From IMG/VR virus record IMGVR_UViG_3300029944_000021, positions 1 through 44,436 of that record: 44,436 nt of DNA. One strand, 5' to 3'. How positions within the stretch are numbered: position 1 is the stretch's first letter; every line of letters begins with the position of its first letter. Below the pieces are notes generated by a model. That model worked only from the letters and a program-made list of their open reading frames with translations. It did not search any database and was not told where the DNA came from. Shown here in pieces: positions 26,559 to 44,436 of the stretch. Both the position numbers and the translations under genes were made by a program. This DNA comes from a virus.

Positions 26559-26682
26559 TTTGCTGCGACGTGCCATCTACATCCCAACTTATGCCGGGAG
26601 CTAAGGAAGATGGGAGGCAATTCCCATCCGGGCACCAATTCCCGGTTACGCTGGCCTTAACCAGTTCTTCCGTCGCAGCAAA
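26559..26682 (-). other. 124-nt multi-hairpin intergenic element closed by a 12-bp stem
   Basis: tttgctgcgacg (26559-70) is the exact reverse complement of cgtcgcagcaaa (26671-82). Inner hairpins: gatggga/tcccatc (26609-15, 26622-28), ccggg/cccgg (26628-32, 26641-45) and ctgg/ccag (26651-54, 26661-64). Confidence 0.5.
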
Positions 26683-26683
26683 C

Positions 26684-33407: not shown

Positions 33408-33634
33408 CAGTAGCCAAGCACACGTATAACGCTATCGGGATGACTTCCATTCGTGTCGCTTATGGCAACGAATTCGTACAATGAATGCCGTATAACGCCT
33501 TTATTGGAGCGTATAACAGACTGAACATCTTCCCTGTATAACAGTTGCAGACCCTGTATAACAGCCTCGGTATAGTTTCCCGTTATACGCTCGTTCAGGT
33601 CATCAGGTATGCGTGCCGCTCTCAGTGTGCTCAT
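33407..33634 (-). CDS. Small protein whose coding sequence carries the GTATAAC repeat array
   Basis: 75 aa from the ATG at 33634 (TGATG overlap with the upstream ORF). Its stop overlaps the terL ATG (TGATG). Confidence 0.4.
   Translation of the reverse strand: MSTLRAARIPDDLNERITGNYTEAVIQGLQLLYREDVQSVIRSNKGVIRHSLYEFVAISDTNGSHPDSVIRVLGY
33424..33588. repeat. Array of six GTATAAC motifs (candidate pac / DNA-binding site array)
   Basis: Direct copies start at 33424, 33490, 33511, 33536 and 33556. An inverted copy sits at 33582..33588. Extended consensus YGTATAACR. Confidence 0.6.
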
Positions 33635-34086
33635 CAGTCCTCCAGCCTTTGAACCATGCCGCGCAGCCCATGCTTCTGCTCTCTGTGCCCCTTGTCCATC
33701 AGGCACTCATACTGTGTTCCGTCTTCCCACCATCGCTTGCCGCAAATAGGTATCTCAGTTGCCATAGCCCTGCCCGCTTCGGTGAGTTCGGGCGCTATCG
33801 TTCCTACGCATATTTCTCGCAGGTCTTGCATGTCTTTTGGCCGGTCTTTCCCGGCTGTCATGCCCTCACCCCGTTGTGAGCTATGAACCTTATCGCTAAG
33901 GGGCGGATTAGAACCGCATTCCTCACCAGATCTCGGCAAACGAGCGGGAATCGAACCCGCCACGCTCAAATTGTTCCACTTCGTCGAGCGGCACTCACGG
34001 TTACCGCATCGCTCACCATTCGAACGAGGTATCCACTCATGCCCACACACATCGCATTGGTTGATGGTACGTTGCACCAAGGCCAT
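33634..34086 (-). CDS. Zinc-ribbon hypothetical protein containing tRNA T-arm-like sequence
   Basis: 150-aa ORF. N-terminal CDVCGHEW...CGNRECRS and C-terminal ICGKRWWEDGTQYEC. The middle translates as AGSIPA and CGSNPP, the usual read-through of T-arm sequence. Confidence 0.4.
   Translation of the reverse strand: MALVQRTINQCDVCGHEWIPRSNGERCGNRECRSTKWNNLSVAGSIPARLPRSGEECGSNPPLSDKVHSSQRGEGMTAGKDRPKDMQDLREICVGTIAPELTEAGRAMATEIPICGKRWWEDGTQYECLMDKGHREQKHGLRGMVQRLED
33903..33960 (-). other. Two tRNA T-arm-like hairpins (not a complete tRNA)
   Basis: Minus strand: GCGGG-TTCGATT-CCCGC (33960..33944) and GCGG-TTCTAAT-CCGC (33917..33903). I could not fold acceptor, D or anticodon arms around either. 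Confidence 0.35.
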
Positions 34087-34123
34087 GTCTCATTGTACCA
34101 AACATTGTGGCGCATTGCACCAA

Positions 34124-34588
34124 CTACTTGCCGATATGCTTGACAATCAGCGGAGCATCCTCGTTGCCCTCGTGAACTATCTTCTCGCCGTACTTCCTTG
34201 GATTGAGCTGGCCCGCACGCTTCATGAGTGCCTGGTAGATCAATTTGGATCGCTCAACATTGTCCACGATCTTCTGCGAACTAAACGTGCCATCCTTGGT
34301 CTCGGTGACCGTATCAACCTTACCCAATCTTGCCGTATGTGACTCATTCAATGCAGCATCAGCATAGGTGTCAGCCGATAAAATCCTCGCGCGTGCGGAG
34401 TCCTTGAAGAATCCTTCATTCTCGGACATCCACCTGTAAATCGTTACAAGTGTTGGAGTTGATTCTAACTCAGGTTCCGCTCTCATTGTGTCCAGTACGT
34501 GTTCCAGTCCCATACGTGACTCTACGAGACGGTCACATATCTCATCTGCTATGCGCTGATCGAAGGGTATTGCCGGTCTGCCTGCCAT
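34124..34588 (-). CDS. terS: Terminase small subunit-like protein
   Basis: N-terminal GRPAIPFDQRIADEICDRL...TIYRWM helix-turn-helix, ARARILSADTYAD and C-terminal NPRKYGEK, as in gp3-type small terminases. Lies upstream of terL. Confidence 0.6.
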   Translation of the reverse strand: MAGRPAIPFDQRIADEICDRLVESRMGLEHVLDTMRAEPELESTPTLVTIYRWMSENEGFFKDSARARILSADTYADAALNESHTARLGKVDTVTETKDGTFSSQKIVDNVERSKLIYQALMKRAGQLNPRKYGEKIVHEGNEDAPLIVKHIGK

Positions 34589-34602
34589 AGCGGAATTGTA
34601 AC

Positions 34603-34773
34603 CTAGCGCTTCCTTTTTGCGTCTAGCTCTGCGAATTTCTCCTTGCTCATACCTTTGGTGCTCGTGGAAGATAGAAGATAAATCACTCCGATGCAGAGAG
34701 CTACGGGAAGCAAATATGCAAGGCTTACAAGTATAGATAAGCTATTGACCATAACCGTAATGATAGCGTACAT
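34603..34773 (-). CDS. Small membrane protein (uncertain)
   Basis: The track ORF starts at a TTG (34788); an ATG is at 34773. Hydrophobic N-terminal half. Overlaps a + strand promoter candidate. Confidence 0.3.
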   Translation of the reverse strand: MYAIITVMVNSLSILVSLAYLLPVALCIGVIYLLSSTSTKGMSKEKFAELDAKRKR

Positions 34774-34774
34774 T
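34742..34774 (+). promoter_or_regulatory. Promoter candidate P1 (near-leaderless for the ATG at 34781)
   Basis: CTATTGACC, 18 nt, then TACATT, with the ATG 6 nt further on. Shares the CTATTGAC...AACSGTAATG pattern with 34931..34963. Confidence 0.35.
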
Positions 34775-34780
34775 GACGTA

Positions 34781-34930
34781 ATGGACAAAGAAATAATTAG
34801 TCAGGCAATGCGCTGGGTTCGATCTCAAGCAAAGAAAGCTCCGCGCCCTAAAGTGATGCGTCCTTGCTCAAACTGCGGAAAATCATTTGGAGCAAGAGAG
34901 TTACGGGCTCACAAAACTAATTGCAAATAA
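34781..34930 (+). CDS. Small zinc-finger-like protein
   Basis: 49 aa from the ATG at 34781 (the track ORF starts upstream at 34691). CSNCGKSFGARELRAHKTNC. Confidence 0.4.
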   Translation: MDKEIISQAMRWVRSQAKKAPRPKVMRPCSNCGKSFGARELRAHKTNCK

Positions 34931-34963
34931 CTATTGACACGCAACGGTAATGTGCATTAGTAT
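34931..34963 (+). promoter_or_regulatory. Promoter candidate P2
   Basis: CTATTGACA, 18 nt, then TAGTAT, followed by a 25-nt leader with GGAGA before the ATG at 34989. Confidence 0.35.
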
Positions 34964-34988
34964 TGGTCTTGTTAGAGGAGATACGTAG

Positions 34989-35195
34989 ATGATCAGACTT
35001 ATCGACAGTAGGACGTTTGAACAGTTTGAAACCGATGCGCTAAACCATGCTTCGCAGGTGTCAATCAAACACGCAGATGGTTACTATTTCCGCTTGGGAT
35101 CGGCTAATTACGACAACTCGTTTTGCGCCGGTAGCTATGCTAGGCTTGCGGCGAGCGCGGCATTCAAGCTCCACCCAGAACTTAGAATCCACTAA
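34989..35195 (+). CDS. Hypothetical protein
   Basis: 68-aa ORF with a GGAG Shine-Dalgarno sequence. Confidence 0.45.
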   Translation: MIRLIDSRTFEQFETDALNHASQVSIKHADGYYFRLGSANYDNSFCAGSYARLAASAAFKLHPELRIH

Positions 35196-35246
35196 CCCAC
35201 GCGGACTCCAGAGCGCAGCATTGCTCGATCTCCGCTGATGTATGAC

Positions 35247-35382
35247 GATTGCAGTGCTTTAGCGGAATCGGGATGGTGTAAAACCGGTACTTAACCCCAT
35301 GCTGAAGCTGGGCTCTAGGCTCGATTTGCTGACGTGCGACATGGGTCGTGCCGAAGACGAAAGAGCACTGCAATGGCTATAT
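35247..35382 (+). ncRNA. Candidate structured RNA element, copy A (unassigned family)
   Basis: Colinear with 43446..43583. Has invariant blocks, a 13-bp terminal helix and compensatory substitutions including G.U pairs that only work on the + strand. Confidence 0.55.
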
Positions 35383-35400
35383 ATAAATGAAAGGAATCTA

Positions 35401-35559
35401 ATGCGATACCTACCAGAGTTCGTGCCCTACGCAGGCCAGCTTGAGCATGTAACTGAGGTCGTAAACCAGCTCCAGTGCGCCGGCGACACCGGCGATCAGG
35501 TGCTCATCTACCTGGCTCGTAAGTATAGGCTCAATGTTCCGCTACCGGAGGTGAAATGA
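35401..35559 (+). CDS. Hypothetical protein
   Basis: 52 aa from the ATG at 35401 (AAAGGAA upstream). The track ORF start at 35299 lies inside the RNA element. Confidence 0.45.
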   Translation: MRYLPEFVPYAGQLEHVTEVVNQLQCAGDTGDQVLIYLARKYRLNVPLPEVK

Positions 35560-35747
35560 TGTTTGATCCGGAAAAGGTTGAGCGGTTCAACGTTTTATGG
35601 AATGGAGATGTCATACCGGATGATGTTCCGCACCTAGAAGTTGTTTATGCCAAAGACTTCGACGAACTTGTCAAGGAATACGGACTCGTGTGCGAGCTAC
35701 TGCGCATAACACAGAGTTATGTTGACAACAACCCACCAAAACCATGA
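35556..35747 (+). CDS. Hypothetical protein
   Basis: 63-aa ORF with an ATGA overlap to the upstream ORF. Confidence 0.5.
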   Translation: MMFDPEKVERFNVLWNGDVIPDDVPHLEVVYAKDFDELVKEYGLVCELLRITQSYVDNNPPKP

Positions 35748-35760
35748 ATCGAGGCCACAA

Positions 35761-35853
35761 ATGCACCTGTTATTCTTGCCCGACTATATCGCCGTCTTGG
35801 TTATGATGGTGATCTTCCTGCGAAACGCTTTCTCAAGCAAAACAGACATTTAG
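35761..35853 (+). CDS. Possible 30-aa membrane peptide
   Basis: Hand translation MHLLFLPDYIAVLVMMVIFLRNAFSSKTDI. GAGG lies 6 nt upstream. Confidence 0.25.
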   Translation: MHLLFLPDYIAVLVMMVIFLRNAFSSKTDI

Positions 35854-35942
35854 CAAAAGTTTGGTGCGGTGGTCATGGTGATGCGCTAGATGCGCATACA
35901 AATTCCCATATGCGGGTGTTGCGAAACAACTACCGCGCCAAT

Positions 35943-36449
35943 TCAAACATTAGGCAGCATCCCCCGCATCCGGCAGTGATCCGCCGCCGTAATCCTCTCC
36001 ATTGCCGTCCGCAGTAAAACCTCTCTGTGGCGCTCAGGCTTGGCCACCAGCAGCGCCGCAGCACTAAGGGATACGATTACATCCCGCTCGCGATCCTGAA
36101 GCGTGTATCCCCGCTCAGCGAAGCGCAGTATCCACTCCCCGATGCGTAGATTGGACTCGTGTAGCTCTTTAGCCTCACGGACGCGCTGCTGGGCCTGCCA
36201 CGCCTCATGGCTGAGCCTTTCTCGCGGAACGTAGAGCGTGTCTTTCCATGTAAGGTTTACCGCCTTTAGAATGTCATCCGACGAGCATCCGGCGAAACAA
36301 TGCACTGAGCACCTATCCTCGCCTGCATAAATAGCCAAGGTTAGGCTCTTTCCGCCATGCACCGGGCAGATGGCTCTCCACGCCTTACCCTCGCGCCTAG
36401 ATCGCTCGAATAGCCTGGACACCTCTTCAGCTTGCATTATCACCCTCAA
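35943..36449 (-). CDS. Primase-like zinc-finger protein (no catalytic domain recognised)
   Basis: CPVHGGKSLTLAIY...VHCFAGCS resembles CHC2-type primase zinc fingers. Last gene of the replication module. Confidence 0.45.
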   Translation of the reverse strand: MRVIMQAEEVSRLFERSRREGKAWRAICPVHGGKSLTLAIYAGEDRCSVHCFAGCSSDDILKAVNLTWKDTLYVPRERLSHEAWQAQQRVREAKELHESNLRIGEWILRFAERGYTLQDRERDVIVSLSAAALLVAKPERHREVLLRTAMERITAADHCRMRGMLPNV

Positions 36450-36612
36450 AGTAAATTATGATCTGCCCATCATCTTCCTCGAAATATTCTTCAGGTGGCT
36501 CCAGTGTGCAATCATGCAATCCGCTATGGCCGCAAGGCAAGCAGCACTGCTTGAAGAAAGGGTCAGTAACCCCACAGGGCTCGAATAGGTTTTCTATTTT
36601 CTCAGCCTGCAC
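36427..36612 (-). CDS. Hypothetical acidic Cys-containing protein
   Basis: 61-aa ORF overlapping both neighbours. Confidence 0.3.
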   Translation of the reverse strand: MQAEKIENLFEPCGVTDPFFKQCCLPCGHSGLHDCTLEPPEEYFEEDDGQIIIYFEGDNAS

Positions 36613-37273
36613 AGATTCTCTCCGCGTAATCAGCGACGCAATTGGCCAGTTCGGACGGAATGGTAGCGGCTTTAGCTGTATGTTCTTTCCTAATCTTAGA
36701 CTTTGATCCGGACCGCAGCATTGTGTCTTTTAAGCGGCATAGGCGTTTCTCTTCGGGCGTCATATCATTACGGAAACCAGCAGCATGCTGAATGCCCTTC
36801 TTGATTCCCATCGGCATCAGCGGTGGCACGGAATTTCCCCACAGGTAGAAAGGGCCAGCATGGTTAGCTGCAGTCCCGACGAAGCCCTGGGCGCGTTTCG
36901 TATTCTCCATGATGTAATTAACTTCGGCAGTGTGCAGCAAGTTACGGGTGTGGTTAAATAGTCGGATGCCAGTGGATGGGTACGGTGGGTTGGGATGGAA
37001 GTGAGCCATACCGAACAGGCTGAACTCTTCACAAGGACTAGATGATGCAACAAAATCGAATTTACCAAGATATACCGATGGCACTTTTCCGTGAAGCGAC
37101 AAATAGAACCCTATTTCATTACTCCAGTGAAGGCGCTCGACATCGTACTGGATAAATCTGCAACCTTCGGGAGCTTCCTGTGAATTCCAGTCAATTCCTA
37201 CCACTTCCCAGCCTCGCGCAGCGAACGCCTTACCCCATCCGAATCGCCCACAGAACAAATCAAGCATTCGCAT
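36602..37273 (-). CDS. DNA (cytosine-5) methyltransferase, short phage type
   Basis: DLFCGRFGWG (motif I-like), SSPCEEFS (motif IV Pro-Cys), IMENT (motif VI-like) and ATIPSELANCVA (motif X-like). The ATG at 37273 was chosen within track ORF 36602..37318. Confidence 0.75.
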   Translation of the reverse strand: MRMLDLFCGRFGWGKAFAARGWEVVGIDWNSQEAPEGCRFIQYDVERLHWSNEIGFYLSLHGKVPSVYLGKFDFVASSSPCEEFSLFGMAHFHPNPPYPSTGIRLFNHTRNLLHTAEVNYIMENTKRAQGFVGTAANHAGPFYLWGNSVPPLMPMGIKKGIQHAAGFRNDMTPEEKRLCRLKDTMLRSGSKSKIRKEHTAKAATIPSELANCVADYAERICAG

Positions 37274-38864
37274 GTGCGGCCTCTTTCGCCTTCGATTTTG
37301 CGAACTTGATGCGCGCATGCCGATCGAACATCTGCACCTCTAAACTCACCGGCCCCGGCACATTCTGCAATTGATTCGGCCAAACTCCGAACTTCTCGCG
37401 ATAGCGGTGCGCTGCCCAACCATGCTTCTTTTGCCTTTGTTCGGCCAAGGTCAGGAATCCTGAGTACCACTCCTGTTTCTGAAACATAGTAGCTTCGGGC
37501 TTCTTGGGTTTCTTCGTCTTCTGCCCGCTGAACTCGCTGAACTCTGCCTCAATGTGGCCTCCAGTGTACGCAGGCAGGCTCTCATCGCCGCACGCAGGGC
37601 ATTTCTTAGTCTTCGGAGGTATCAGCCAGCCGCATTTCTTGCACTTGCGGTGTGTGGCAGGCTTCGGGTCTTCCTCGAATGCCTTTTCTTTCTTGTCTGC
37701 CGGGTTATGTATGTCCAGGTGGTCGTGGTAGATGTCCTCCGCCGGAGCTAGGGCGGTGCCGTCGTCTCGTGTGAGGTTGCCGCCGTGGTCAATTACCAGC
37801 ACATCCGTCTTTGGTTGCTGGCCTGCAACTCTCTTGCGGGGATTGTCCGTTCTCAGTCCCCTGCCGATGATCTGAACCCAATCCGTCTCAGACTTGATAA
37901 TTCTACAAATTCCAAGAACTCGTACATCCTCGTCTATGCCCGTCGTCAGCACGCCATAATTGACCACCAAGCGATACTCAGCCCTCCGGTAGGCCATCAG
38001 TACCTTTGTGCGGTGTTCGCGCGTCATAGAGCCGTCTATGTAGCCGCAGGTGATGCCTTTGGCCTCGAACTCATCCCGCAGCTTACGAGCGTGGGCAAGA
38101 TTCTCGGCATAGTAGAACCCCGGTCGATCCTCGCCGTACTTTAGGTAGGTCTTGACCACGTCCCCGATTATCCGGCCATCGCTCATCACCGCGGCCCGGT
38201 CTTTCTCAGTCAGGATGCGGTTGCCGTCCTCGTCCAGGTGCGTCTTCAGCCCCTTGGTGCTAGGCTCCTCGCTGCCCACCAGATACCGCGGTCGCACCAG
38301 GTAGCCCTCGTCGATAAGCTGCGCCGTGGTCTTGGTCTGAATCAGCGCCTTCCACCGCCGCCCCATGCCTTTCTTCCAAGGCGTTGCGCTCAGGCCGATG
38401 ATGATCACATCCCGCCAGTCCAAAGAGTCCACCATATCCAAGAATGCTTCGGTCGAGAGATGCACCTCGTCAACGATGATGAAGTCCAGATCGGGCAGCT
38501 CTCTATTCACCGCCGTGTGGATGCTGGCCACCTGCAACTTAGCATGAGGATTAGTGCGTGGGTGATCTTGCTGCACGATGCCGATGTCAGACAGCCCCTC
38601 GCCCTCAAACTCTTCAACCGATGGCTCTATCAGGGCATTGCGCGGAACAGTGAACATGCTGACTTTGCCCTTGGAATAGCCAGACTTGAACAGATTGGCA
38701 GAGACTAGAGTTTTCCCCCATCCCACGCTGGCACAGCCGATAATTCTTTTATGCCCTCGCTTGGCAGCCTCGCGCACCTGCTCAATGAACAGCTCCTGGT
38801 GGTCGCGCATCAGCTTCTGCGGCTTGGGCGGAGCTTCTGTTTCGAACATGTTGGCTTGGATCAC
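37260..38864 (-). CDS. Superfamily 2 DEAD/DEAH-box helicase with C-terminal zinc ribbon
   Basis: GWGKT (Walker A), IIVDEVH, GLSATP, QIIGRGLR and CKKCGW...CPACG. Confidence 0.8.
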   Translation of the reverse strand: MIQANMFETEAPPKPQKLMRDHQELFIEQVREAAKRGHKRIIGCASVGWGKTLVSANLFKSGYSKGKVSMFTVPRNALIEPSVEEFEGEGLSDIGIVQQDHPRTNPHAKLQVASIHTAVNRELPDLDFIIVDEVHLSTEAFLDMVDSLDWRDVIIIGLSATPWKKGMGRRWKALIQTKTTAQLIDEGYLVRPRYLVGSEEPSTKGLKTHLDEDGNRILTEKDRAAVMSDGRIIGDVVKTYLKYGEDRPGFYYAENLAHARKLRDEFEAKGITCGYIDGSMTREHRTKVLMAYRRAEYRLVVNYGVLTTGIDEDVRVLGICRIIKSETDWVQIIGRGLRTDNPRKRVAGQQPKTDVLVIDHGGNLTRDDGTALAPAEDIYHDHLDIHNPADKKEKAFEEDPKPATHRKCKKCGWLIPPKTKKCPACGDESLPAYTGGHIEAEFSEFSGQKTKKPKKPEATMFQKQEWYSGFLTLAEQRQKKHGWAAHRYREKFGVWPNQLQNVPGPVSLEVQMFDRHARIKFAKSKAKEAAHANA

Positions 38865-39025
38865 GAGATTTGCTCATCTTCCACACGTTTTCCCACAGAC
38901 CTGACGACTCGGTATCCCAGGGTTTTTAAGTGTTCGCAATAGGAATCGCTCCAAATCCACTTGGCAACATACCAACCTTCGGATCCGTAAACCCACATTC
39001 TTTCGTGACTACTGTCGTTGCTCAT
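38861..39025 (-). CDS. Small Trp-rich hypothetical protein (54 aa, below the track cutoff)
   Basis: Hand translation MSNDSSHERMWVYGSEGWYVAKWIWSDSYCEHLKTLGYRVVRSVGKRVEDEQIS. ATGA overlap upstream and GTGA overlap downstream. Confidence 0.35.
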   Translation of the reverse strand: MSNDSSHERMWVYGSEGWYVAKWIWSDSYCEHLKTLGYRVVRSVGKRVEDEQIS

Positions 39026-39243
39026 ACTGTGATCTCTCCGTAAACTTCTGCAATTAATAGCTGCTTGCTTTGCTCTGTCTCCAGCATGATCTGAACCGGG
39101 GCGACATAGACCTCGTGTCGCAAGGTTCGCCGTATCACGCTCTCTATGGTCGCAGTCGTGGTCTTGAAGTAGTCGGCGAGTTCCTGAACTGAATACCCTT
39201 GCAGGAACTTAGTGTTGATTGCCTTATGCGTGATTGCCATCAT
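39022..39243 (-). CDS. Small helix-turn-helix-like protein
   Basis: 73 aa. YSVQELADYFKTTTATIESVIRR resembles a sigma-70 region 4/LuxR-type HTH. Confidence 0.4.
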   Translation of the reverse strand: MMAITHKAINTKFLQGYSVQELADYFKTTTATIESVIRRTLRHEVYVAPVQIMLETEQSKQLLIAEVYGEITV

Positions 39244-39420
39244 TCACCTCGATACGCCTAGCAGCAGCCTTCGCGATTCATCATCTTTGCATCGGTCTAG
39301 CTGATCCATAAAAGATATTCGAAGCTTCAGCATGGTTCTCTTTGTATTGCAAAGACGATATCTTCGGATGAACCATATGCGGCGATGATAGTTGGGATCT
39401 TCTAATCGAGACTTTTTCAC
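39244..39420 (-). CDS. Small basic hypothetical protein (58 aa)
   Basis: The GTG start overlaps the stop of the Vsr-like gene (GTGA). Its stop abuts the ATG at 39243. Confidence 0.3.
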   Translation of the reverse strand: MKKSRLEDPNYHRRIWFIRRYRLCNTKRTMLKLRISFMDQLDRCKDDESRRLLLGVSR

Positions 39421-39749
39421 AGCACCACCTCCAGCACATCTGTTATTGCTTGGCCCTTGATGACCATCGCCGTCGAGTAGCGAAGCACCTTCCATCCTAG
39501 CCGCGCAGCAATGTTGTACTTGACGCAATCCGTTTCGAATCCATTGCCGCGGCTGTGGCGAGACTTTCCGAATGACGTTCCGCCTTCGATCTCCACCGCT
39601 ATCAGGCGCTCAGGCCATGCGAAATCGAATGCGAACTTGCGGCCCTCGCAGAACTTGTATTCCCGCTCGGGGGTTAGGTTGTGTGCGTGGCAGTGGAGCG
39701 CGAAAGTCTCCTCGCCGGGGCTTAGAGGTTGCGGTATTTTGGCGGGCAT
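39417..39749 (-). CDS. PD-(D/E)XK endonuclease-like protein (DUF559/Vsr-like)
   Basis: EREYKF...FAFDFAWPERLIAVEIEGG...GWKVLRY. The ATG at 39749 was chosen within track ORF 39417..39926. Confidence 0.55.
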   Translation of the reverse strand: MPAKIPQPLSPGEETFALHCHAHNLTPEREYKFCEGRKFAFDFAWPERLIAVEIEGGTSFGKSRHSRGNGFETDCVKYNIAARLGWKVLRYSTAMVIKGQAITDVLEVVL

Positions 39750-40024
39750 GGCTTCTCCATTGATGGGCCGTAGTTGTGAAACGTCCGATGACAATAGCCG
39801 CAGTAGGTCTCCACCTGATCTAAACTGTCTCCCCACATGCGCTTTCCACGCTTGTGAGATAAATGCATACTTCCGTTCTGTTCTTGATCCATATCCGGGA
39901 ACACAGTTCTTCCACACCTGACGCATCTATGTCCATCGCGCTCATAGGCGGATATGCGCAAAGATGCTAACTCATCGCCCTTTAGCCTGCCCGGCCTGGG
40001 TTTAGTTCGTGGTCGTATCTTCAC
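39722..40024 (-). CDS. HNH endonuclease
   Basis: CVRCGR...HLSHKRGK...CGYCHRTFHN. The GTG start overlaps the upstream stop (GTGA). Confidence 0.65.
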   Translation of the reverse strand: MKIRPRTKPRPGRLKGDELASLRISAYERDGHRCVRCGRTVFPDMDQEQNGSMHLSHKRGKRMWGDSLDQVETYCGYCHRTFHNYGPSMEKPCPPKYRNL

Positions 40025-40182
40025 TTAGTAGCCTCGAACTTCCTCATGCACGCATGGCACATAAATGCAGGGTTGTACCGGCTTATTGTCGTGCCGCATG
40101 GGCACCGCCTCTGCTCAGGTTGCGGCGGCGCCCAATCCTCGATGTAGCTGAACATCCTGCTTCCGCGGTCTTCACTCATCAT
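40021..40182 (-). CDS. Small zinc-ribbon protein (53 aa, below the track cutoff)
   Basis: Hand translation MMSEDRGSRMFSYIEDWAPPQPEQRRCPCGTTISRYNPAFMCHACMRKFEATK. AAGGA upstream. Confidence 0.4.
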   Translation of the reverse strand: MMSEDRGSRMFSYIEDWAPPQPEQRRCPCGTTISRYNPAFMCHACMRKFEATK

Positions 40183-40190
40183 CCATCCTT

Positions 40191-40499
40191 TCAGTCATTG
40201 AATTCGTGTAGTCCGCCAGCGATGGCAATTTCGAACATCACTGCTTTCGCCACAGCGGAATTACTTTTCTTGGATATGAGAGTGCCTAGCTTTTTATGCA
40301 CTCCTACGAAATGGTGGTAGTTTGCTCCCTCGGCCTCACTGTCGCAATATTCTTCCAGATCTTCCAGGGTAGTGTTATCCACAGTGGCCTTCTCGGAGGT
40401 AGAACCTTTACCACAAAAAGAAAGACTATGTGCGTTTCCGAGATAACGGTTTACCTCATCGCCATCACACTTTTCATTGATCCAAAACAGATTGCTCAT
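40191..40499 (-). CDS. Hypothetical acidic protein
   Basis: 102-aa ORF. Confidence 0.45.
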   Translation of the reverse strand: MSNLFWINEKCDGDEVNRYLGNAHSLSFCGKGSTSEKATVDNTTLEDLEEYCDSEAEGANYHHFVGVHKKLGTLISKKSNSAVAKAVMFEIAIAGGLHEFND

Positions 40500-40678
40500 T
40501 CGTAAACCCCCAATTCCTTATTCGCCTTGTATTTCCTGCGCTTTGCCTCTTCTGCCGCAAGGTGCCTAATTTCCGGCGTCTCAACCTTCATCAAGGGAAC
40601 GATGAAGCGATTCCAGGAGCTTAGACTGCCGCACTCCATCATCAGAATCTTGAACAGCGTTGGCGCGTAATCCGGCAT
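40496..40678 (-). CDS. Hypothetical protein (start uncertain)
   Basis: 60-aa ORF overlapping the exonuclease 3' end by 98 nt. The internal ATG at 40591 would cut the overlap to 11 nt. Confidence 0.3.
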   Translation of the reverse strand: MPDYAPTLFKILMMECGSLSSWNRFIVPLMKVETPEIRHLAAEEAKRRKYKANKELGVYE

Positions 40679-41303
40679 ATTGCATACCTCCTAACTTGGC
40701 CACCATTACATCGACTTCTGCCAGGAATGCGATCACGCCAGCTTCCATGAAGGCAATGCTTTCTTCGTCGCGTAGCAGGCGTCTAATGAAAACTTGATTG
40801 CGGGGCGGCAGGCGAGGATCGAAACTCACGAAATCTACCCACTGTCGGCCAGAGCAAGCCATCTCTGCGGTGAGCTGCCACAGGTGCTCTTCGGGTATGA
40901 GCCCGGCCATCATCCATTCAATGTGCGTCGTAGTTACCGGGCACTTTATCTCGACTATCCCGTCATTGCCAACGTACCTGTCCGGAGACGCGCTGAACAT
41001 CGGTATGGTGGGGTGCTCTGCTATGCCAACCTCTTCCACGTCGTTTCCGCTAACAACTTCATAGGCAGCACTGGCGTACTCTTCCGTGTCTATACCCCAC
41101 TGCATCGCAGGTGTGACGTAGTGCTCAACTGCGAATCCGGTCAGGCGTTCGGTTACTACATCCGTAAGATAGTCTTTGCGCTTCTGCGAAGGTTGGCCAT
41201 TGTTGAGGAACGAGAGAGCATCCTTCACTCGGGATCCGGTACACTTGCCGATTCTCGCCTTCAGCCATTCAGGGGTTTGCTGCTTCAACTCGATTGGGTT
41301 CAT
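40581..41303 (-). CDS. YqaJ/lambda-exonuclease-like recombination exonuclease
   Basis: N-terminal QQTPEWLKARIGKCTGSRV, typical of YqaJ-type PD-(D/E)XK exonucleases. Adjacent to the annealase. Confidence 0.7.
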   Translation of the reverse strand: MNPIELKQQTPEWLKARIGKCTGSRVKDALSFLNNGQPSQKRKDYLTDVVTERLTGFAVEHYVTPAMQWGIDTEEYASAAYEVVSGNDVEEVGIAEHPTIPMFSASPDRYVGNDGIVEIKCPVTTTHIEWMMAGLIPEEHLWQLTAEMACSGRQWVDFVSFDPRLPPRNQVFIRRLLRDEESIAFMEAGVIAFLAEVDVMVAKLGGMQYAGLRANAVQDSDDGVRQSKLLESLHRSLDEG

Positions 41304-42022
41304 GCCAACTCCCCTTTGCGCTTGTTGTAGGCATCCATGAACAGCTTCACCGCTGTAGAGTCGTTCGCCTCAACCGCCGCCCTGTACTCCCTGCGATACT
41401 GCTCTTTTAGGGTCTCCATGTCCGCGCAGTGCAGCAACTGGCTAACCGTCGCAGCTATGGCCTCAGAAACCTTCAATCCGGCTCCATTGCCGTCGTCGTC
41501 CTTCTCGTCAAAGCGCAGGTCGAAGATCATGTTCTTGAGGTAGCGCTTGCCGTAGGTGATTGCAGAGCCGGTAGCGTGAGTGCGTGACATGACGCCGCCC
41601 CCCTTTGCTCCCTTTCCATCAGCAGGCATTGGTAGAGGGTATTCTTTAGTGAACGCCCCGAGAGATAGGGTACCAATAATTAACACCTCATCTGGCTTAT
41701 CGGATACCGCCGGCCGGAAGGAAAGCGTCATATTCTCATCGTCCAGCAAAGTTTGAATCTCGCTGTCGATGTCCTCTGACGTAGCAAACTTGCTCTTGGT
41801 ATCAGGGTTCCAGCCGCGCTTGGGGATGCTCTTCAGTTTCTTCTGAATGCGCTTCAGCGTGGCGTTGAATGCCTCCTCCTCGCTGTGCTGAATCATCCAT
41901 TTCTGCTGCTCAAGGATGAGGTTTACAACCTCCATGGCGCTGCCCTGCTTGATCGCCGCATCGAATGCCACCTGGATCATCTGCATGGGGGTCTGTACTT
42001 GGGTTGATAGCTCGGTGCTCAT
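41300..42022 (-). CDS. ERF-family single-strand annealing protein
   Basis: GSAITYGKRYLKNMIFDL resembles the ERF core signature. Acidic C-terminal tail. Paired with the exonuclease. Confidence 0.6.
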   Translation of the reverse strand: MSTELSTQVQTPMQMIQVAFDAAIKQGSAMEVVNLILEQQKWMIQHSEEEAFNATLKRIQKKLKSIPKRGWNPDTKSKFATSEDIDSEIQTLLDDENMTLSFRPAVSDKPDEVLIIGTLSLGAFTKEYPLPMPADGKGAKGGGVMSRTHATGSAITYGKRYLKNMIFDLRFDEKDDDGNGAGLKVSEAIAATVSQLLHCADMETLKEQYRREYRAAVEANDSTAVKLFMDAYNKRKGELA

Positions 42023-42189
42023 TTGGCCACCATCCAGGTAATCACCTTGGCTAAGGTAGTGCCGTCCATCGGTTCGCCCTTCTCTACCCGGTTGAGGGTC
42101 GGTACGGGTATGCCAATCTCAGGGGCAAGCTCCCGCAAGGTCACCCGCTCCGCATCGCGCCATGTTTTTATGAGTTCGCCAATTTTCAT
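42019..42189 (-). CDS. XRE/Cro-type helix-turn-helix regulator (56 aa, below the track cutoff)
   Basis: Hand translation MKIGELIKTWRDAERVTLRELAPEIGIPVPTLNRVEKGEPMDGTTLAKVITWMVAK. ATGA overlap with the ERF gene. First gene leftward of the divergent control region. Confidence 0.7.
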   Translation of the reverse strand: MKIGELIKTWRDAERVTLRELAPEIGIPVPTLNRVEKGEPMDGTTLAKVITWMVAK

Positions 42190-42216
42190 AAAGCAACGTT
42201 CTCATACAACTTTCGT

Positions 42217-42267
42217 CTTGTCAATGATAATTTTCTTGACAATGATACAAACAAGTGGCAATCTTGT
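42217..42267. promoter_or_regulatory. Divergent early control region with operator-like repeats
   Basis: CTTGTCAATGATA (42217-29) and CTTGACAATGATA (42235-47), 12/13 identical and 18 bp apart. ACAAG-N7-CTTGT palindrome at 42251-67. TTGACA at 42237-42. Confidence 0.4.
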
Positions 42268-42361
42268 ATTCGTAATCAAGGAGCCACAGTGAACCGCATA
42301 GTTCTACCACTGGTCCGGCAGGGTTGGGCGAGCAAGATAATCAGCTTATTTGTGAGGGTAT

Positions 42362-42628
42362 ATGGACTCTAGAACAATAACTGCTACTGAAATGATCGAC
42401 GATCTAGGATTACGCAATCGGGCGTACCAGGTGCTCTATGCGCTAGGCGATACGGCTGCAACAGTTCGCACGCTGACTTCAGGTGAAGCGGCCTGTCTTG
42501 TGGGCATCGTAGGCGATTTATTGGACGAACGCGCGCACCCCTTGTTGCAGTGGACAGAACTGGACGAATTGCTGTACCACCGCATGTCACCGCGAATGAT
42601 TCAATATGTTGCCGAAGGTGGAATATGA
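42362..42628 (+). CDS. Hypothetical protein
   Basis: 88-aa ORF, the first sizeable rightward gene. Confidence 0.45.
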   Translation: MDSRTITATEMIDDLGLRNRAYQVLYALGDTAATVRTLTSGEAACLVGIVGDLLDERAHPLLQWTELDELLYHRMSPRMIQYVAEGGI

Positions 42629-42732
42629 TCTGCATCCACTGCAACCAACCAATCAAGGATGAGCCGGTAAGAACGGTTATCGGGCCGGTTCATCTCAAGT
42701 GTGCGGATTACAAGAAAGGCAATACTAAATGA
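42625..42732 (+). CDS. Small zinc-ribbon-like protein (35 aa)
   Basis: The ATG at 42625 overlaps the upstream stop (ATGA). CIHCNQ...HLKCADY. Confidence 0.35.
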   Translation: MICIHCNQPIKDEPVRTVIGPVHLKCADYKKGNTK

Positions 42733-42917
42733 AAACTATCGAGTGTCCGAAGTGCAGGAAAGTAGTTAATGTCGAGCCTGAGCATAACGGCTTCAATAAA
42801 GTCAACTCGGGCCACGGCAGAATAATTGACCCGTGGAGACGCCCAACTGAGTTGCAGTGTGCATGTGGACAGCATATCGTGCTGGTGATCGCTTCACCTC
42901 AATTCAAAGCAGCCTAA
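42729..42917 (+). CDS. Zinc-ribbon protein
   Basis: 62 aa with CPKCRK...CACGQH. ATGA overlap upstream. Confidence 0.5.
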   Translation: MKTIECPKCRKVVNVEPEHNGFNKVNSGHGRIIDPWRRPTELQCACGQHIVLVIASPQFKAA

Positions 42918-42945
42918 CTTTTTTCAACTGCGCGAGAGGCGTAAA

Positions 42946-43098
42946 ATGAGCATACCTAACTATCCCGAAAGTACATGCGCTGCTGACGTAGAGGCTTATT
43001 ACGGAAGCGGTATAGAAGTTGAGCAGGCCGTTACGTGCAAAGAGAACGACTCTTGCCGCTGTGACAGTTGCCTGGAGTTTATGGAGGCGCAACTATGA
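42946..43098 (+). CDS. Small Cys-rich protein (50 aa)
   Basis: Hand translation MSIPNYPESTCAADVEAYYGSGIEVEQAVTCKENDSCRCDSCLEFMEAQL. GAGAGG upstream. Confidence 0.4.
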   Translation: MSIPNYPESTCAADVEAYYGSGIEVEQAVTCKENDSCRCDSCLEFMEAQL

Positions 43099-43313
43099 GC
43101 CACGCGCATATCTTCGCTCTGGCGGTAGTTGTATGGGTAGTCCTTACCATGCTGGTAGTCGTGTTCCTCTACGCCTGCGACAAGACAAGCAAGGGCGCCG
43201 ACGAAGCAGATATGACCGCCAGAACGAAGGACGATAGCGAGTACGAGAAGTACGCCAGGAAATATAACGAGTTCGACCATGCTAAGGAGGAGTCGAGATG
43301 GCGAGATCGGTAA
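43095..43313 (+). CDS. Single-pass membrane protein
   Basis: 72 aa from the ATG at 43095 (ATGA overlap). IFALAVVVWVVLTMLVVVFLY followed by a charged tail. Confidence 0.45.
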   Translation: MSHAHIFALAVVVWVVLTMLVVVFLYACDKTSKGADEADMTARTKDDSEYEKYARKYNEFDHAKEESRWRDR

Positions 43314-43447
43314 TGACTCAGGCGATCAATATCGCGCACGACCAGCAGCGGCCTTTTTGCTTGATTTCTAGGTGCGCTGGATTTTGGTTCGTGATTCCTA
43401 ACTACGTAGATAGGTTGGAAGAGATAGATTACTTAAGCGTGGAGTGA
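43298..43447 (+). CDS. Small hypothetical protein (49 aa)
   Basis: AAGGAGG lies 7 nt upstream of the ATG at 43298. Its stop overlaps the first bases of RNA element copy B. Confidence 0.35.
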   Translation: MARSVMTQAINIAHDQQRPFCLISRCAGFWFVIPNYVDRLEEIDYLSVE

Positions 43448-43583
43448 TTGCAGTGCTTTAGCGGAGTTGAGTTAGCGTAATTTACCGAGCCTCTACCCCA
43501 TGCTGGAGACGGTTGCTAGATTCGATTCGCTGACGGTTGGCATGGGCTGATCCGAAGACGAAAGAGCACTGCAATGGCTATAT
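43446..43583 (+). ncRNA. Candidate structured RNA element, copy B (unassigned family)
   Basis: Colinear with 35247..35382, with the same invariant blocks and helices. Ends 30 nt before the ATG at 43614. Confidence 0.55.
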
Positions 43584-43613
43584 GAAGAGATAAACGCATT
43601 AGAGGTGGAGTTA

Positions 43614-43892
43614 ATGGGATACGGAATGGATGAAGAGGATTGGGGTGATGCGGCTTTGGACGATATACACCAGCACGATATGGTCAACCTCTCAAAAGCA
43701 TATTCGAATGCTGGAAATTCAGAGGTAGGAGCAACTATACGCTGCCCTGTTTGCAATTTTGGTTTCGTCAAGAAGACGGTATGCCAACGGTTCTGTAACC
43801 GCAAGACTACAGGAAGAAGTACCTGTAAGGACGTTTATCACAATACTACAAACCCCCGAGGATTCCAGATCGAAAGAAGGGATAGGGAGTAA
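43614..43892 (+). CDS. Zinc-ribbon protein
   Basis: 92 aa from the ATG at 43614 (GGTGGAG upstream; the track start is a GTG at 43605). CPVCNF...CQRFCN. Confidence 0.5.
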   Translation: MGYGMDEEDWGDAALDDIHQHDMVNLSKAYSNAGNSEVGATIRCPVCNFGFVKKTVCQRFCNRKTTGRSTCKDVYHNTTNPRGFQIERRDRE

Positions 43893-44093
43893 ATGAGCGA
43901 GATTGTATACACCGAAGGGCCGTGGAAAATGCGAGTCAACGGATGCACCGCCTCAATCGTTACGGAGTCTGGAGTAGGAGTTGGGCTTTGTCAGCAAGTA
44001 AAGAAGCCGAAAACAATTCCGAATGCTCGTCTTATTTCCGCCGCTCCTGAACTCCTTGAAGCGCTCAAGCGTATTCGCGATGGGGCAGGATAA
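43893..44093 (+). CDS. Hypothetical phage protein, possibly truncated by an in-frame TAA
   Basis: 66 aa with EGPW...NARLISAAPELLEALKRI. The same frame stays open for 42 more codons after the TAA. Confidence 0.55.
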   Translation: MSEIVYTEGPWKMRVNGCTASIVTESGVGVGLCQQVKKPKTIPNARLISAAPELLEALKRIRDGAG

Positions 44094-44222
44094 AATCCAG
44101 GATTTACGGCATGTGGGTGCGAAGATCACAATTCTCCAGATTGCTGTAACAATGCGGGATATTGCTGTCCCGAGTGCATAGCGGCTGCAGCCATAGCCAA
44201 AGCTACCGCAGCCAACCAGTGA
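44094..44222 (+). other. Start-less Cys-rich in-frame extension after the TAA (read-through, pseudogenisation or sequencing error)
   Basis: NPGFTACGCEDHNSPDCCNNAGYCCPECIAAAAIAKATAANQ, with no in-frame ATG, GTG or TTG. It ends 21 nt before the next ATG (44244), whose SD lies in the gap. Confidence 0.4.
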
Positions 44223-44243
44223 ACCACTCAGGAGAAAAACTAA

Positions 44244-44336
44244 ATGTTTACTACAAAATTTCTTGTATTTTATCTAGTGGCCTGTTGGATAAGCCGAAAG
44301 AATATTCAATTTTGGGATAGATACTACTCAAAGTGA
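44244..44336 (+). CDS. Possible 30-aa peptide spanning into the terminal repeat
   Basis: AGGAGA lies 8 nt upstream. MFTTKFLVFYLVACWISRKNIQFWDRYYSK. Its stop overlaps the GTG of the Cys-rich ORF (position 24 copy). Confidence 0.25.
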   Translation: MFTTKFLVFYLVACWISRKNIQFWDRYYSK

Positions 44337-44436
44337 ACCGCTCAGAGGGGATGGAGAAAAATACGATGACGAAATCTAACGCAGAGGGAGCCGAACAAGC
44401 AGCCAGGGATAAGGATAACGACCTTAGAATTGCAGA
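44310..44436. repeat. Second copy of the 127-bp terminal overlap (identical to 1..127)
   Basis: Identical by direct comparison. Confidence 0.95.

Follow-up and report, generated by a model that had tools for sequence, protein, structure and literature searches.

Two diverged copies of a three-way junction RNA module lie between cistrons of an Acidobacteria-type soil phage

Copies A and B of a ~137-nt element in a phage genome (IMG/VR record IMGVR_UViG_3300029944_000021) are two diverged paralogues of one independently folding RNA module, a three-way junction whose ends are clamped together by a 13-bp helix. We analysed positions 1 to 44,436 of this record (the window, 44,436 nt in full). The features of A and B mark a structured RNA that is absent from Rfam, in an Acidobacteria-type soil phage, and a third element of like architecture, copy C, belongs to a C-type family defined here. 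Acidobacteriota are a dominant, poorly cultured soil phylum, and to our knowledge the control of genes at the RNA level in their phages is almost unexplored. The analysis adds two RNA structures that Rfam 15 lacks, A/B with strand-specific compensation and C-type with strong covariation that includes a loop-loop pseudoknot.

Table 1. Positions of the elements and their parts in the window
Feature	Position	Strand	Description
Copy A	35247-35382	+	136 nt
P2 terminal loop, copy A	35294-35303	+	ACCCCAUGCU, same as in B
P3 hairpin, copy A	35334-35351	+	GUGCGA-CAUGGG-UCGUGC
Copy B	43446-43583	+	138 nt; leading G, P1, P2 arm, P3, J3/1, P1 3' strand, 8-nt tail
P1 5' strand, copy B	43447-43459	+	AUUGCAGUGCUUU
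P2 arm, copy B	43460-43531	+	P2a is 43460-43471 with 43521-43531; distally internal loops, short stems and a terminal loop
P2 terminal loop, copy B	43495-43504	+	ACCCCAUGCU, invariant in A/B; CCCAUG at 43497-43502
P3 hairpin, copy B	43535-43552	+	GGUUGG-CAUGGG-CUGAUC; loop CAUGGG at 43541-43546
J3/1 joining strand, copy B	43553-43562	+	CGAAGACGAA, invariant, purine-rich
P1 3' strand, copy B	43563-43575	+	AGAGCACUGCAAU
Tail, copy B	43576-43583	+	GGCUAUAU, single-stranded, invariant
Copy C	26551-26685	-	Late genes; architecture like A/B
P1, copy C	26682-26671 with 26570-26559	-	12 bp
P2, copy C		-	GAAGA/UCUUC, opening into three hairpins
P3, copy C	26599-26582	-	Hairpin; loop kisses a domain loop
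Mini-hairpin, copy C	26581-26571	-	UGUAGAUGGCA

Sequence and fold of copies A and B

As listed in Table 1, the two copies differ slightly in length; they are 80% identical inside the element (~137 nt), and its edges are sharp, with identity at the background level beyond the borders. The copies agree completely over their first 20 nt (GATTGCAGTGCTTTAGCGGA) and last 32 nt (CCGAAGACGAAAGAGCACTGCAATGGCTATAT), whereas about one third of the interior positions differ (~32% divergence), with a 2-nt indel. A model built from A and B themselves (R1) scored copy B at 167 bits and copy A at 162 bits.

In the fold shared by the two copies, the 13-bp P1 clamps the ends, P2 forms a long kinked arm, P3 is a 6-bp hairpin, and an invariant purine-rich strand, CGAAGACGAA, connects P3 to P1. 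A preliminary description of this DNA had proposed these helices, and each one was present where it had been placed. In P2, AGCGGA pairs with UUYGCU and the arm continues as UCGGG:CUCGA in copy A and UUGAG:UUCGA in copy B; the distal stems are CCGG:CUGG and CUU:AAG in copy A and CCG:CGG and CUCU:GGAG in copy B. Five of the six P3 pairs changed identity between the copies, and all six still pair. A 2-bp mini-hairpin, CG-AAGA-CG, may form within J3/1 of copy B.

An unguided RNAalifold run on both copies returned the same model, with a consensus of 43 pairs, of which 10 had changed on one side and 4 on both sides, and none was broken. In a 45-pair model that includes the loop-loop helix, 13 pairs differed between the copies, none was broken, and 100% of the cells paired, as compared with 31-42% in a control in which partners were slid by 1-3 columns. 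Within the P2 arm, seven pairs had changed on one side and one on both sides, again with none broken. The minimum-energy structure of copy B alone contained 50 pairs, 44 of which were kept in copy A; when the same 33 differences were placed randomly, a mean of 13.2 pairs was broken, and six or fewer were broken in 36 of 20,000 simulations. The RNAalifold model, the 45-pair model and the random-placement simulation all agree that the fold was kept through compensatory changes.

The element had also been described as a + strand RNA rather than a DNA palindrome, and the folding energies bore this out. As + strand RNA, copies B and A folded at -49.7 kcal/mol (z -3.0) and -48.9 kcal/mol (z -3.25), respectively, and as minus-strand RNA at -36.3 kcal/mol (z -1.7) and -38.3 kcal/mol (z -2.5), an advantage of 10-13 kcal/mol for the + strand, on which both copies are co-oriented with the surrounding genes. 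Because each copy contains ~8 G.U pairs, the fold works only as + strand RNA; the compensating mutations are effective on one strand only, indicating that the selected structure is RNA. Single-stranded DNA on the + strand could in principle fold during replication, as a priming signal (ssi) or an attC-type recombination site, and G.T wobbles are equally strand-specific; a primase-like ORF lies beside copy A, and an origin located between C and A could make the directions of all three elements compatible with lagging-strand templates. However, the DNA fold is weak (-19.8 kcal/mol with z -1.5 for B, -21.7 kcal/mol with z -2.4 for A) and its ensembles are ill-defined, with an almost empty centroid; the orientation is explained equally well by transcription, the sequence contains no attC core (RYYYAAC/GTTRRRY), and no integrase was recognised among the subset of ORFs scanned. 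We regard a role for this structure at the ssDNA level as exceedingly improbable.

Gene callers place an 86-aa ORF through copy A with its start at the loop ATG at 35299, and this ORF is probably spurious. Coding from the loop ATG was rejected since the frame is closed in copy B after 16 codons, and a protein-coding reading of A/B was rejected on account of the 2-nt indel, substitutions at every codon position and the lack of a codon pattern. Judged from the sequence of the two copies, the element is non-coding for protein. Stop-codon read-through or a SECIS element was likewise rejected (the frames close within 10 codons, and UGA precedes copy B only), as were a tRNA-like element (ARAGORN found no tRNA or tmRNA gene in the window) and a promoter for a phage-owned polymerase (no RNA polymerase was recognised among the ORFs scanned).

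The CCCAUG of the P2 terminal loop and the CAUGGG loop of P3 form a duplex of -8.5 kcal/mol, and the chance expectation of a full 6-nt complement inside a 12-nt loop is 0.0019. We infer that the two loops kiss, the P2 loop bending back onto that of P3, in which case P3 and the kissing helix (12 bp) would lie alongside P2a (12 bp) in the model. Because both loops are identical in A and B, covariation between the copies cannot probe this contact, but the equivalent helix of the C-type family covaries, which lends the proposed contact indirect support. Alternatively, the element might be processed out of the mRNA as a stable noncoding RNA that acts in trans. It could serve as a decoy or sponge that engages a host factor or defence system, or it could self-assemble, with the loops of A and B joining hand in hand across molecules in the manner of phi29 pRNA. 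The paired ends speak for an excised, stable RNA; in addition, the two invariant and mutually complementary loops each contain the palindrome CAUG, and the downstream genes offer no cis-regulatory logic. We nevertheless consider a trans-acting role rather improbable: the packaging genes of this phage encode an Sf6-type small terminase and a large terminase (TerS/TerL) and are not of the phi29 type, the intramolecular contact is geometrically allowed (12 bp against 12 bp), the C-type loops covary within one molecule, and no target was identified.

Placement between cistrons and the C-type family

All three elements lie between cistrons, in the direction of the flanking genes and in three separate transcription units, and A and B would be carried within + strand polycistronic phage mRNAs. 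P1 of copy B begins within the TGA stop codon (43445-43447) of an upstream 49-aa ORF, and the 3' end of this copy is 21 nt ahead of GAGGTGGAG-ATG; copy A ends 10 nt ahead of AAAGGAA-ATG; and copy C begins at the TAG of a 205-aa ORF and finishes 8 nt ahead of AGGAGG-ATG. The segment after P1 is A/U-rich and single-stranded in all elements, including the C-type ones, and the Shine-Dalgarno sequences and start codons are outside the conserved element. Copy A is ~310 nt after a promoter-like site at 34934 and is followed by just two small genes; copy B is ~1.2 kb past the divergent early region at ~42200 and ~1.2 kb into its operon; and copy C is deep in the late genes, ~8 kb into its operon. Tiny ORFans flank A and B, and because the 354-aa and 92-aa neighbours of copy B are ORFans, synteny is unusable for this copy. 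A primase-like zinc-ribbon ORF adjoins copy A. No promoter-like or terminator-like site inside A or B was reported by a site scan, and no intrinsic terminator was predicted after either copy. By eye, the 3' block reads AAGACG-17-TATATA, a 7/12 promoter match only, below the scan's reporting.

A position ~10-30 nt ahead of an RBS might suit an operator that controls translation of the downstream gene, or a sensor of the riboswitch kind, with a ligand or protein bound at the junction of a purine riboswitch-like fold, and a P1-closed three-way junction with a loop-loop contact is the topology of the purine aptamer. We find such a role very unlikely. The Shine-Dalgarno sequence and start codon are not part of the element, no terminator or alternative pairing is evident, the downstream genes are mutually unrelated, C-type elements stand before different genes, and no Rfam riboswitch model matched.

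Searching the whole window with the 4227 models of Rfam 15, which include twister, twister-sister, pistol, hatchet, HDV-like RNAs, pRNA and riboswitches, gave no match at the gathering threshold. At E<=10, copy B had no match and copy A had noise only (sR53, 14.7 bits against a threshold of 49); a wcaG RNA match to copy C was also rejected as noise (11.6 bits, E 8.1, threshold 42). Among GenBank phages there was no match to copy B (blastn) or to 33000-44436 (megablast), and pattern scans of IMG/VR for A/B gave no true match, the 11 hits of one scan being chance on inspection. A metagenome scan for A/B returned the same phage only, an exact look-up of neighbour proteins led to nothing but identical copies of this phage, and R1 found no A/B-type copy over ~0.9 Mb of related phage loci. 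Across the GenBank phages, IMG/VR and metagenomes searched, A/B is known from this one phage only, and the A/B copies are identical in all its contigs. Several of these contigs end inside the element, which we attribute to breaks in assembly at a repeat rather than to the ends of an RNA. When z-scores were scanned across the whole genome for more elements, the signal was too noisy to be of use.

Copy C, which folds with a z of -4.26, was matched by R1 at 25.9 bits (E 2.8e-4). A model of the C-type family (R2), run with filters off, recovered neither A nor B at E<=10, which leaves C as at most a candidate homologue of A/B. The family comprises eight members from related Acidobacteriota phages, one of them in the same genome as A/B, and an IMG/VR scan for C-type elements gave nothing beyond three contigs already known. 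In the family, 95.9% of the cells pair and 22 pairs have changed on both sides, which was reached in 0 of 500 shuffles; the sequence of P1 covaries freely, and the loop-loop helix covaries within one molecule. This pattern of change suggests that the C-type fold is under long-term selection. The module also appears in varied settings: a 58%-identity relative (L040) has an exact empty C-type site whose borders are the P1 ends, another phage (L094) carries the module in a different intercistronic slot, and a third (L031) has a gene inserted between the module and the usual downstream gene, so that C-type modules precede different genes in different phages.

A/B and C-type elements share an end clamp of 11-13 bp, a branched P2 domain, a short P3 that kisses a loop of the P2 domain, a short purine-rich segment (..AGA.G..) ahead of the P1 3' strand, and a location between cistrons in the direction of transcription. 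The P2 domain of the C-type is a four-way junction with three hairpins, whereas that of A/B is one long arm; the kissing loops are UUGCC:GGCAA and CCCAUG:CAUGGG, respectively; and the junctions have only the pattern NGNAGANG in common. We infer from these likenesses that A/B falls within a wider group of end-clamped intercistronic RNA modules of Acidobacteriota phages, of which the C-type would be the better-sampled example.

Possible roles in phage transcripts and genomes

From its placement, we tentatively propose, with somewhat less than even confidence, that A/B is a cis-acting module for mRNA processing or stability, a form of mRNA punctuation. A compact fold would form directly past the upstream stop codon and 20-30 nt ahead of the next RBS. 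Cleavage would occur either at the module or right beside it, carried out by the RNA itself or by a host enzyme (RNase E and RNase III being examples), or else within the A/U-rich tail. The module would then stay behind, capping the 3' end of the upstream message against exonucleases or blocking the 5' end of the downstream one. The tight fold may also stop the 137-nt untranslated gap from serving as a Rho loading site. This proposal is consistent with the structural and strand evidence from A/B, with a non-coding element placed between stop codon and RBS in A, B and C, with the A/U-rich single-stranded tail after P1 in every element, and with long-term selection on the C-type fold. The autonomy of the module (the empty site in L040, the slot in L094 and the inserted gene in L031) also favours it, as does the lack of an expression platform, there being no terminator after A/B and the Shine-Dalgarno sequence lying outside the element. 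However, a plain stabiliser needs no invariant junction strand, invariant loops or tertiary contact, features that point to catalysis, ligand binding or protein binding. Moreover, the tiny ORFans that flank A/B have no obvious need for differential stability; the modules are dispensable, A and B being absent from close relatives and C from distant ones; and the identical 20-nt and 32-nt ends are left unexplained beside an interior that has diverged by ~32%.

Catalysis would be a special case of the processing model, in which the element is a new class of self-cleaving ribozyme with a putative active site formed by the junction CUGAC / CGAAGACGAA / UUUAG, and in which a loop-loop contact would hold the active fold in place, as stem I-stem II does in the hammerhead. 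Known small phage ribozymes occur in several copies per genome, have a patchy distribution, follow the direction of transcription and are not associated with any one gene family. The present elements, likewise multi-copy in one genome, patchy, co-oriented and without a fixed gene family, have a hammerhead-like topology of three helices, arms joined by a loop-loop contact, an invariant junction and covarying peripheral stems. Self-cleavage is an unlikely reading all the same, as no Rfam ribozyme model matches at E<=10, the hammerhead core is out of register, and the junctions of A/B and C-type share so little.

Another cis role would be that of a processive antiterminator in the manner of HK022 put or Bacillus EAR, whose nascent fold binds RNA polymerase and makes it terminator-resistant, with one copy per transcription unit. 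A, B and C do occur once per transcription unit and are oriented along it; copy C has an intrinsic terminator 1.3 kb downstream (25258-25243, minus strand); and comparison of the scanned ORFs with Pfam and PHROGs revealed nothing that resembled an N or Q protein. HK022 has two related put RNAs, putL and putR, one in each early operon, and these ~70-nt RNAs lie near the promoter (PMC9378689), whereas B and C lie ~1.2 kb and ~8 kb into their operons. After A there are only two small genes and no predicted terminator. A link between copy C and the terminator at 25258-25243 was rejected, since relatives that carry C lack a consistent downstream terminator, and the end clamp can form only once the whole element has left the polymerase. 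With these points against it, antitermination seems to us a poor prospect.

A DNA-level explanation starts from the ends, which are 100% identical while the interior has diverged. The element would then be the border of a mobile or recombinogenic cassette, its ends serving as homologies for ERF and a YqaJ exonuclease, both encoded by this phage, or as inverted repeats for a transposase. Accessory genes would be shuffled much as at the PeSLs of T4-type phages, which are a precedent for accessory-gene exchange motifs (PMC4122927, PMC2839356), the fold being selected to make the spacer harmless (no Rho loading, cistrons kept close), and the 3' block might hold a weak promoter (AAGACG-17-TATATA). 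A variant contig (L018) becomes homologous to the window immediately past the tail of copy B. The unrelated upstream gene of that contig is joined precisely after GGCTATA(T), the 3' end of copy B, a mosaic junction which suggests that phage mosaicism could involve exchange at such modules. The accessory regions that contain A and B are rich in ORFans and missing from the closest relatives, the mini-operon of A being absent in L038 and L031; positions 42544-42645 hold a fourth inverted repeat that shares the 8-bp core TTGCAGTG/CACTGCAA; and the C-type has an exact empty site and a relocated copy. Like a MITE, the element has terminal inverted repeats, 13-bp arms ATTGCAGTGCTTT / AGAGCACTGCAAT with one G.T position. 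There is, however, no target-site duplication at A (flanks ..TATGAC / ATAAAT..) or B (..GGAGT / GAAGAG..), no insertion polymorphism was seen among the contigs of this phage, the sole empty site being the C-type one in L040, and the copies number only two or three. No transposase was recognised in the ORF subset scanned. Free covariation in P1 of the C-type means that recognition does not depend on the sequence of this helix; a harmless spacer needs no invariant loops, junction or loop-loop contact; and there is no intrinsic terminator and just a 7/12 promoter match. On balance we doubt that the element is a cassette border.

Whatever the role, the end-clamped body plan between cistrons yields testable candidates for a ribozyme, an antiterminator and mRNA punctuation, and the eight members of the C-type family are enough for a family-level description. 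If their function is autonomous and portable, end-clamped modules would be useful as insulators in synthetic operons.

Comparison with known systems

The purine aptamer is ~70 nt long with other junction strands, whereas A/B has neither an expression platform (nothing terminator-like follows A or B, and the Shine-Dalgarno sequence is 10-21 nt beyond the element) nor a metabolic gene context. The put RNAs resemble A/B in having two related copies per phage, each in its own operon, and a structure conserved above sequence. They are stem-loop pairs without a closing helix (PMC9378689) and without a loop-loop contact, whereas A/B is a 137-nt three-way junction with a 13-bp P1. The PeSLs of T4-type phages and the RNase III sites of T7 are also repeated structured intergenic motifs between cistrons, and PeSLs mark exchange points of accessory genes (PMC4122927), as at the 3' end of copy B. 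Those motifs, however, are simple hairpins with promoters, terminators or dsRNA cleavage sites, whereas A/B is branched, with a tertiary contact, and has no terminator.

Type III hammerheads (RF00008 and relatives) share with A/B a three-helix junction, ends paired in an open helix and arms joined loop to loop; P1-P3 of A/B show compensatory change, and the loop complementarity is present and invariant. Hammerheads occur in phage genomes, often in several copies. They have a CUGANGA/GAAA/NUH core, and A/B is twice their size. The preliminary description had called the likeness superficial, and we concur: the core could not be placed in register, and no Rfam ribozyme or riboswitch model matched at E<=10. 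In the sequence ...UUYGCUGAC-P3-CGAAGACGAA-P1, position 9 is U/G and not A; keeping C3 makes pair 1.1-2.1 a G-G, so that stem I fails; and J3/1 is 10 nt long and not GAA. Enlarging N7 or shrinking stem II did not rescue the hammerhead reading, stem I being out of register.

The phi29 pRNA shares with A/B a three-way junction, paired 5' and 3' ends and two mutually complementary loops. The element had no Rfam match to the pRNA family, and the pRNA loops pair intermolecularly to form a ring on the portal, whereas here packaging is by terminase and three elements lie inside operons. It is conceivable, if unlikely, that A/B and the C-type represent a new class of RNA, either catalytic, with a hammerhead-like plan and an unrelated core, or oligomerising in the manner of pRNA, which would cut or organise the polycistronic transcripts of Acidobacteriota phages.

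Compensatory change and strand in copies A and B

Pairwise alignment of copies A and B, the two diverged forms of a structured element of ~137 nt, revealed sharp borders with unrelated flanks. Their ends are identical (the first 20 and last 32 nt), and about one in three interior positions differ, in addition to a 2-nt indel. All helices listed in the preliminary description were found in place in both copies, and RNAalifold recovered the same model from the two sequences alone, with 43 pairs, 10 one-side changes, 4 both-side changes and none broken. When the loop-loop helix was included, the model held 45 pairs with 90/90 cells as standard pairs; a shift of the 3' partners by 1-3 columns reduced pairing to 31-42%. 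Because a consensus built from both sequences is self-biased, the minimum-energy structure of B alone was also checked in A, where 44 of its 50 pairs are retained. Random placement of the same 33 differences with the same transition share broke a mean of 13.2 pairs, and six or fewer were broken in 36 of 20000 simulations. The RNAalifold model, the column-slide control and the B-alone test agree that the structure was kept through compensatory changes, as had been proposed; the element is real, and the first reading of it is supported.

The model contains ~8 G.U pairs per copy, and A and B have the orientation of the surrounding ORFs. Folding energies of the + strand RNA were -49.7 kcal/mol (z -3.0) for B and -48.9 (z -3.25) for A, compared with -36.3 and -38.3 kcal/mol, respectively, for the minus strand. 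With DNA parameters, the + strand reached -19.8 (B) and -21.7 kcal/mol (A), with nearly empty centroids. Protein coding was rejected in view of the 2-nt indel, substitutions at all codon positions and, in B, a loop-ATG frame ending after 16 codons. Taken together, these observations lend good support to the earlier view that the element would act as a + strand RNA rather than as a DNA palindrome. A single-stranded DNA signal is highly improbable. Gene callers annotate an 86-aa ORF (window 35299-35559) from the ATG within the invariant copy A loop, passing through A into the real downstream gene. It probably over-extends that 52-aa gene, whose probable start is at 35401, and its presence in public assemblies likely reflects mis-annotation prompted by the RNA element.

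The complementarity noted earlier between a CCCAUG loop and the loop of hairpin P3 is full over 6 nt (in copy B, CCCAUG at 43497-43502 with CAUGGG at 43541-43546). This duplex has an energy of -8.5 kcal/mol and a chance expectation of ~0.002. Both loops are invariant between A and B on diverged carrier stems, which argues for function but makes covariation uninformative for this contact. The contact appears geometrically feasible, because P3 and the kissing helix, 6 bp each, would together stack to the 12-bp length of P2a, the basal helix of the long arm P2; a large internal loop in P2 would turn the distal arm back toward P3.

Structured elements in the window and in related phage loci
Element	Sequence	Positions	Strand	Location
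Copy A	window	35247-35382	+	
Copy B	window	43446-43583	+	
Copy C	window	26551-26685	minus	between 205-aa and 414-aa late genes
C-type	L038	9188-9318		
C-type	L033	9565-9700		
C-type	L031	9543-9677		
C-type	L039	6351-6477		
C-type	L034	9833-9970		
C-type	L032	9697-9823		
C-type	L094	4956-5088		

Copy C and the C-type family

Searching the window with a covariance model of A and B (R1) revealed one additional full-length match (minus strand, 26685-26550, 25.9 bits, E 2.8e-4 with filters off). This copy C folds at -57.2 kcal/mol (z -4.26) and consists of a perfect 12-bp clamp, a 5-bp P2 opening into three hairpins, and a P3 hairpin, with a mini-hairpin UGU-AGAUG-GCA immediately 5' of the 3' strand of the end-clamp helix P1. 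By anchoring on the 414-aa protein, homologues were recovered in L038/L041, L031, L033, L039, L034/L035 and L032, and a search with a model of this C-type family (R2) added a member in the Terracidiphilus prophage L094. These ~130-nt intercistronic RNAs, which share an 11-12 bp end clamp, a four-way junction and the segment UGYAGANGGCAC, are a structured RNA family absent from Rfam. Across the eight aligned members, 95.9% of cells are paired and both sides have changed in 22 of 38 pairs, values reached by 0/500 shuffles. The partner of the H3 loop (A)UUGCC is the P3 loop GGCAA(U), and in L094 both sides are altered together (GCUG(A)CC with GGCAGC); by this joint change, the predicted loop-loop contact covaries. 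A and B share the body plan of the C-type, but the R2 search did not detect them, so that common descent is unproven.

L040 carries an exact empty site (...TAG/GTATTTTCAAGGAGG, compared with the occupied ...TAG/G-TTTGCTGCGACG...CGTCGCAGCAAA-/GTATTTTCAGGAGG), whose borders are the ends of P1. The module occupies a different intercistronic slot in L094, and in L031 a gene is inserted between it and the usual downstream gene. Judged from these three arrangements, the C-type module is autonomous.

The L031 insertion (9690-10003) is a 95-aa ORF between the element and a 413-aa gene, with the ribosome-binding/start segment AGGAG(A/G)AACCAGAGATG duplicated on both sides, a duplication that points to recombination at this segment as the route of insertion. 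L032 has a second structured stretch, ~180 nt long (9820-10000), which separates its C-type variant from the ribosome-binding site of a 409-aa gene. On the minus strand of the window, 25037-25291 may be a second cis-regulatory RNA: directly 3' of the 414-aa gene lies an intrinsic terminator, GCCGCC-TTCG-GGCGGT-TTTCTCTTT (25258-25243), followed by the extended -10-like motif TGGTACTAT; a ~150-nt leader, conserved in L031, L032 and L034, precedes a 451-aa gene.

Distribution and genomic setting

At gathering thresholds, no Rfam 15 family matched anywhere in the window; at E<=10, copy B had no match and copy A noise only. ARAGORN found no tRNA or tmRNA in the window. Searches for A/B homologues gave no match in GenBank phages, no genuine match in exact-pattern scans of IMG/VR, the same phage only in a metagenome scan, and no A/B-type copy in an R1 search of ~0.9 Mb of related phage loci; such scans depend on exact patterns or close relatives, and absence from them is no proof. 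The A/B element is an RNA structure without Rfam match and is best placed among the intercistronic structured RNAs of phages. Exact-protein look-ups placed the same phage in at least 8 samples, with identical A and B copies. Several of its contigs terminate inside the element, a typical outcome when an assembly breaks at a repeat.

A 127-nt exact terminal direct repeat (1-127 = 44310-44436) indicates that the ~44.3-kb genome assembly is complete and circularly closed. It encodes a small terminase of the Sf6 type, a large terminase, a DEAD-like helicase, a DNA methyltransferase, and an ERF recombinase with a YqaJ exonuclease, and its early regions diverge at ~42200. The host is probably an acidobacterium, since MAGs of Pseudacidobacterium and Terracidiphilus contain relatives, in the case of Terracidiphilus as a prophage within a 390-kb contig. 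A 158-nt direct repeat of 71% identity (1285-1442 and 30538-30695, distant minus-strand regions), whose similarity is also seen in L038, probably represents two paralogous coding segments.

The operon that carries copy A is small, on the + strand, and served by sigma-70-like promoters of its own; it resembles an acquired accessory cassette, as neither of the closest relatives, L038 and L031, has it. At its head are two similar promoter-like repeats (34741-34780 and 34930-34966; CTATTGAC-N6-AAC(C/G)GTAATG), with TTGACC-18-TACATT and TTGACA-18-TAGTAT. The 5' end of copy B overlaps the TGA that closes a 49-aa ORF, and its 3' end lies 21 nt upstream of the GAGGTGGAG-ATG that serves a 92-aa ORFan. 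No terminator was found downstream of either copy.

In a variant from sample ERZ27249752 (L018, 1-330, compared with window 43290-43620), an unrelated upstream gene replaces the 49-aa ORF and copy B and abuts exactly 3' of the copy B tail GGCTATA(T), at 43583/43584. By this exact join, the 3' end of copy B is a mosaic junction. A recombination or mobile cassette border would accord with this junction, the identical A/B ends, the phage-encoded ERF/YqaJ and the precedent of PeSL, the repeated intergenic promoter/terminator motifs of T4-type phages (PMC4122927); however, target duplication is absent and P1 covaries in the C-type, and we consider such a border unlikely.

Possible functions and comparison with known RNAs

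A and B are structured non-coding + strand RNA modules, two intercistronic paralogues co-oriented with transcription; they are dispensable in relatives, and their architecture is that of a family whose fold has been selected over the long term. We tentatively favor a role in mRNA punctuation, which is possible though short of probable. The module would abut the upstream stop codon and be followed by an A/U-rich single strand and the next ribosome-binding site. Cleavage by the RNA itself or a host RNase would leave it capping the upstream message or shielding the downstream one, and its compactness would prevent Rho loading in the 137-nt untranslated gap. The sharpest version of this idea, a new self-cleaving ribozyme, best fits the invariant junction and tertiary contact but is itself unlikely; there is a modest chance that the element belongs to a new catalytic or self-assembling RNA class.

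The punctuation model leaves unexplained why the A/B ends are identical and the interior diverged. One reading is that A and B recently exchanged sequence at their ends; a DNA-level signal in the 3' block, forcing conservation of its pairing partner, is another. A third is a sequence-specific partner of the P1 helix; of note here, the 8-bp P1 core recurs in a fourth inverted repeat of 11 bp (42544-42554 and 42635-42645; GTTGCAGTGGA / TCCACTGCAAC), where UGCCGAAG precedes the 3' arm as in A and B. This repeat lies within coding sequence, encloses the ATGA stop/start overlap of 88-aa and 35-aa ORFs, and has an interior without significant fold (z -1.65); it may be a decayed element copy or a translational-coupling helix.

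A trans-acting or oligomerizing RNA is quite unlikely, and an operator or riboswitch improbable. A put/EAR-like antiterminator would agree with one element per transcription unit, but the put RNAs (PMC9378689) differ from A and B in size, shape and position, which makes this reading doubtful. A hammerhead was rejected: the strand order ...UUYGCUGAC-P3-CGAAGACGAA-P1 lacks A9 and has ten nt in place of GAA, and the stem I register is lost when C3 is retained. The core thus misfits, and the likeness to hammerheads, described as superficial from the start, is one of topology only.
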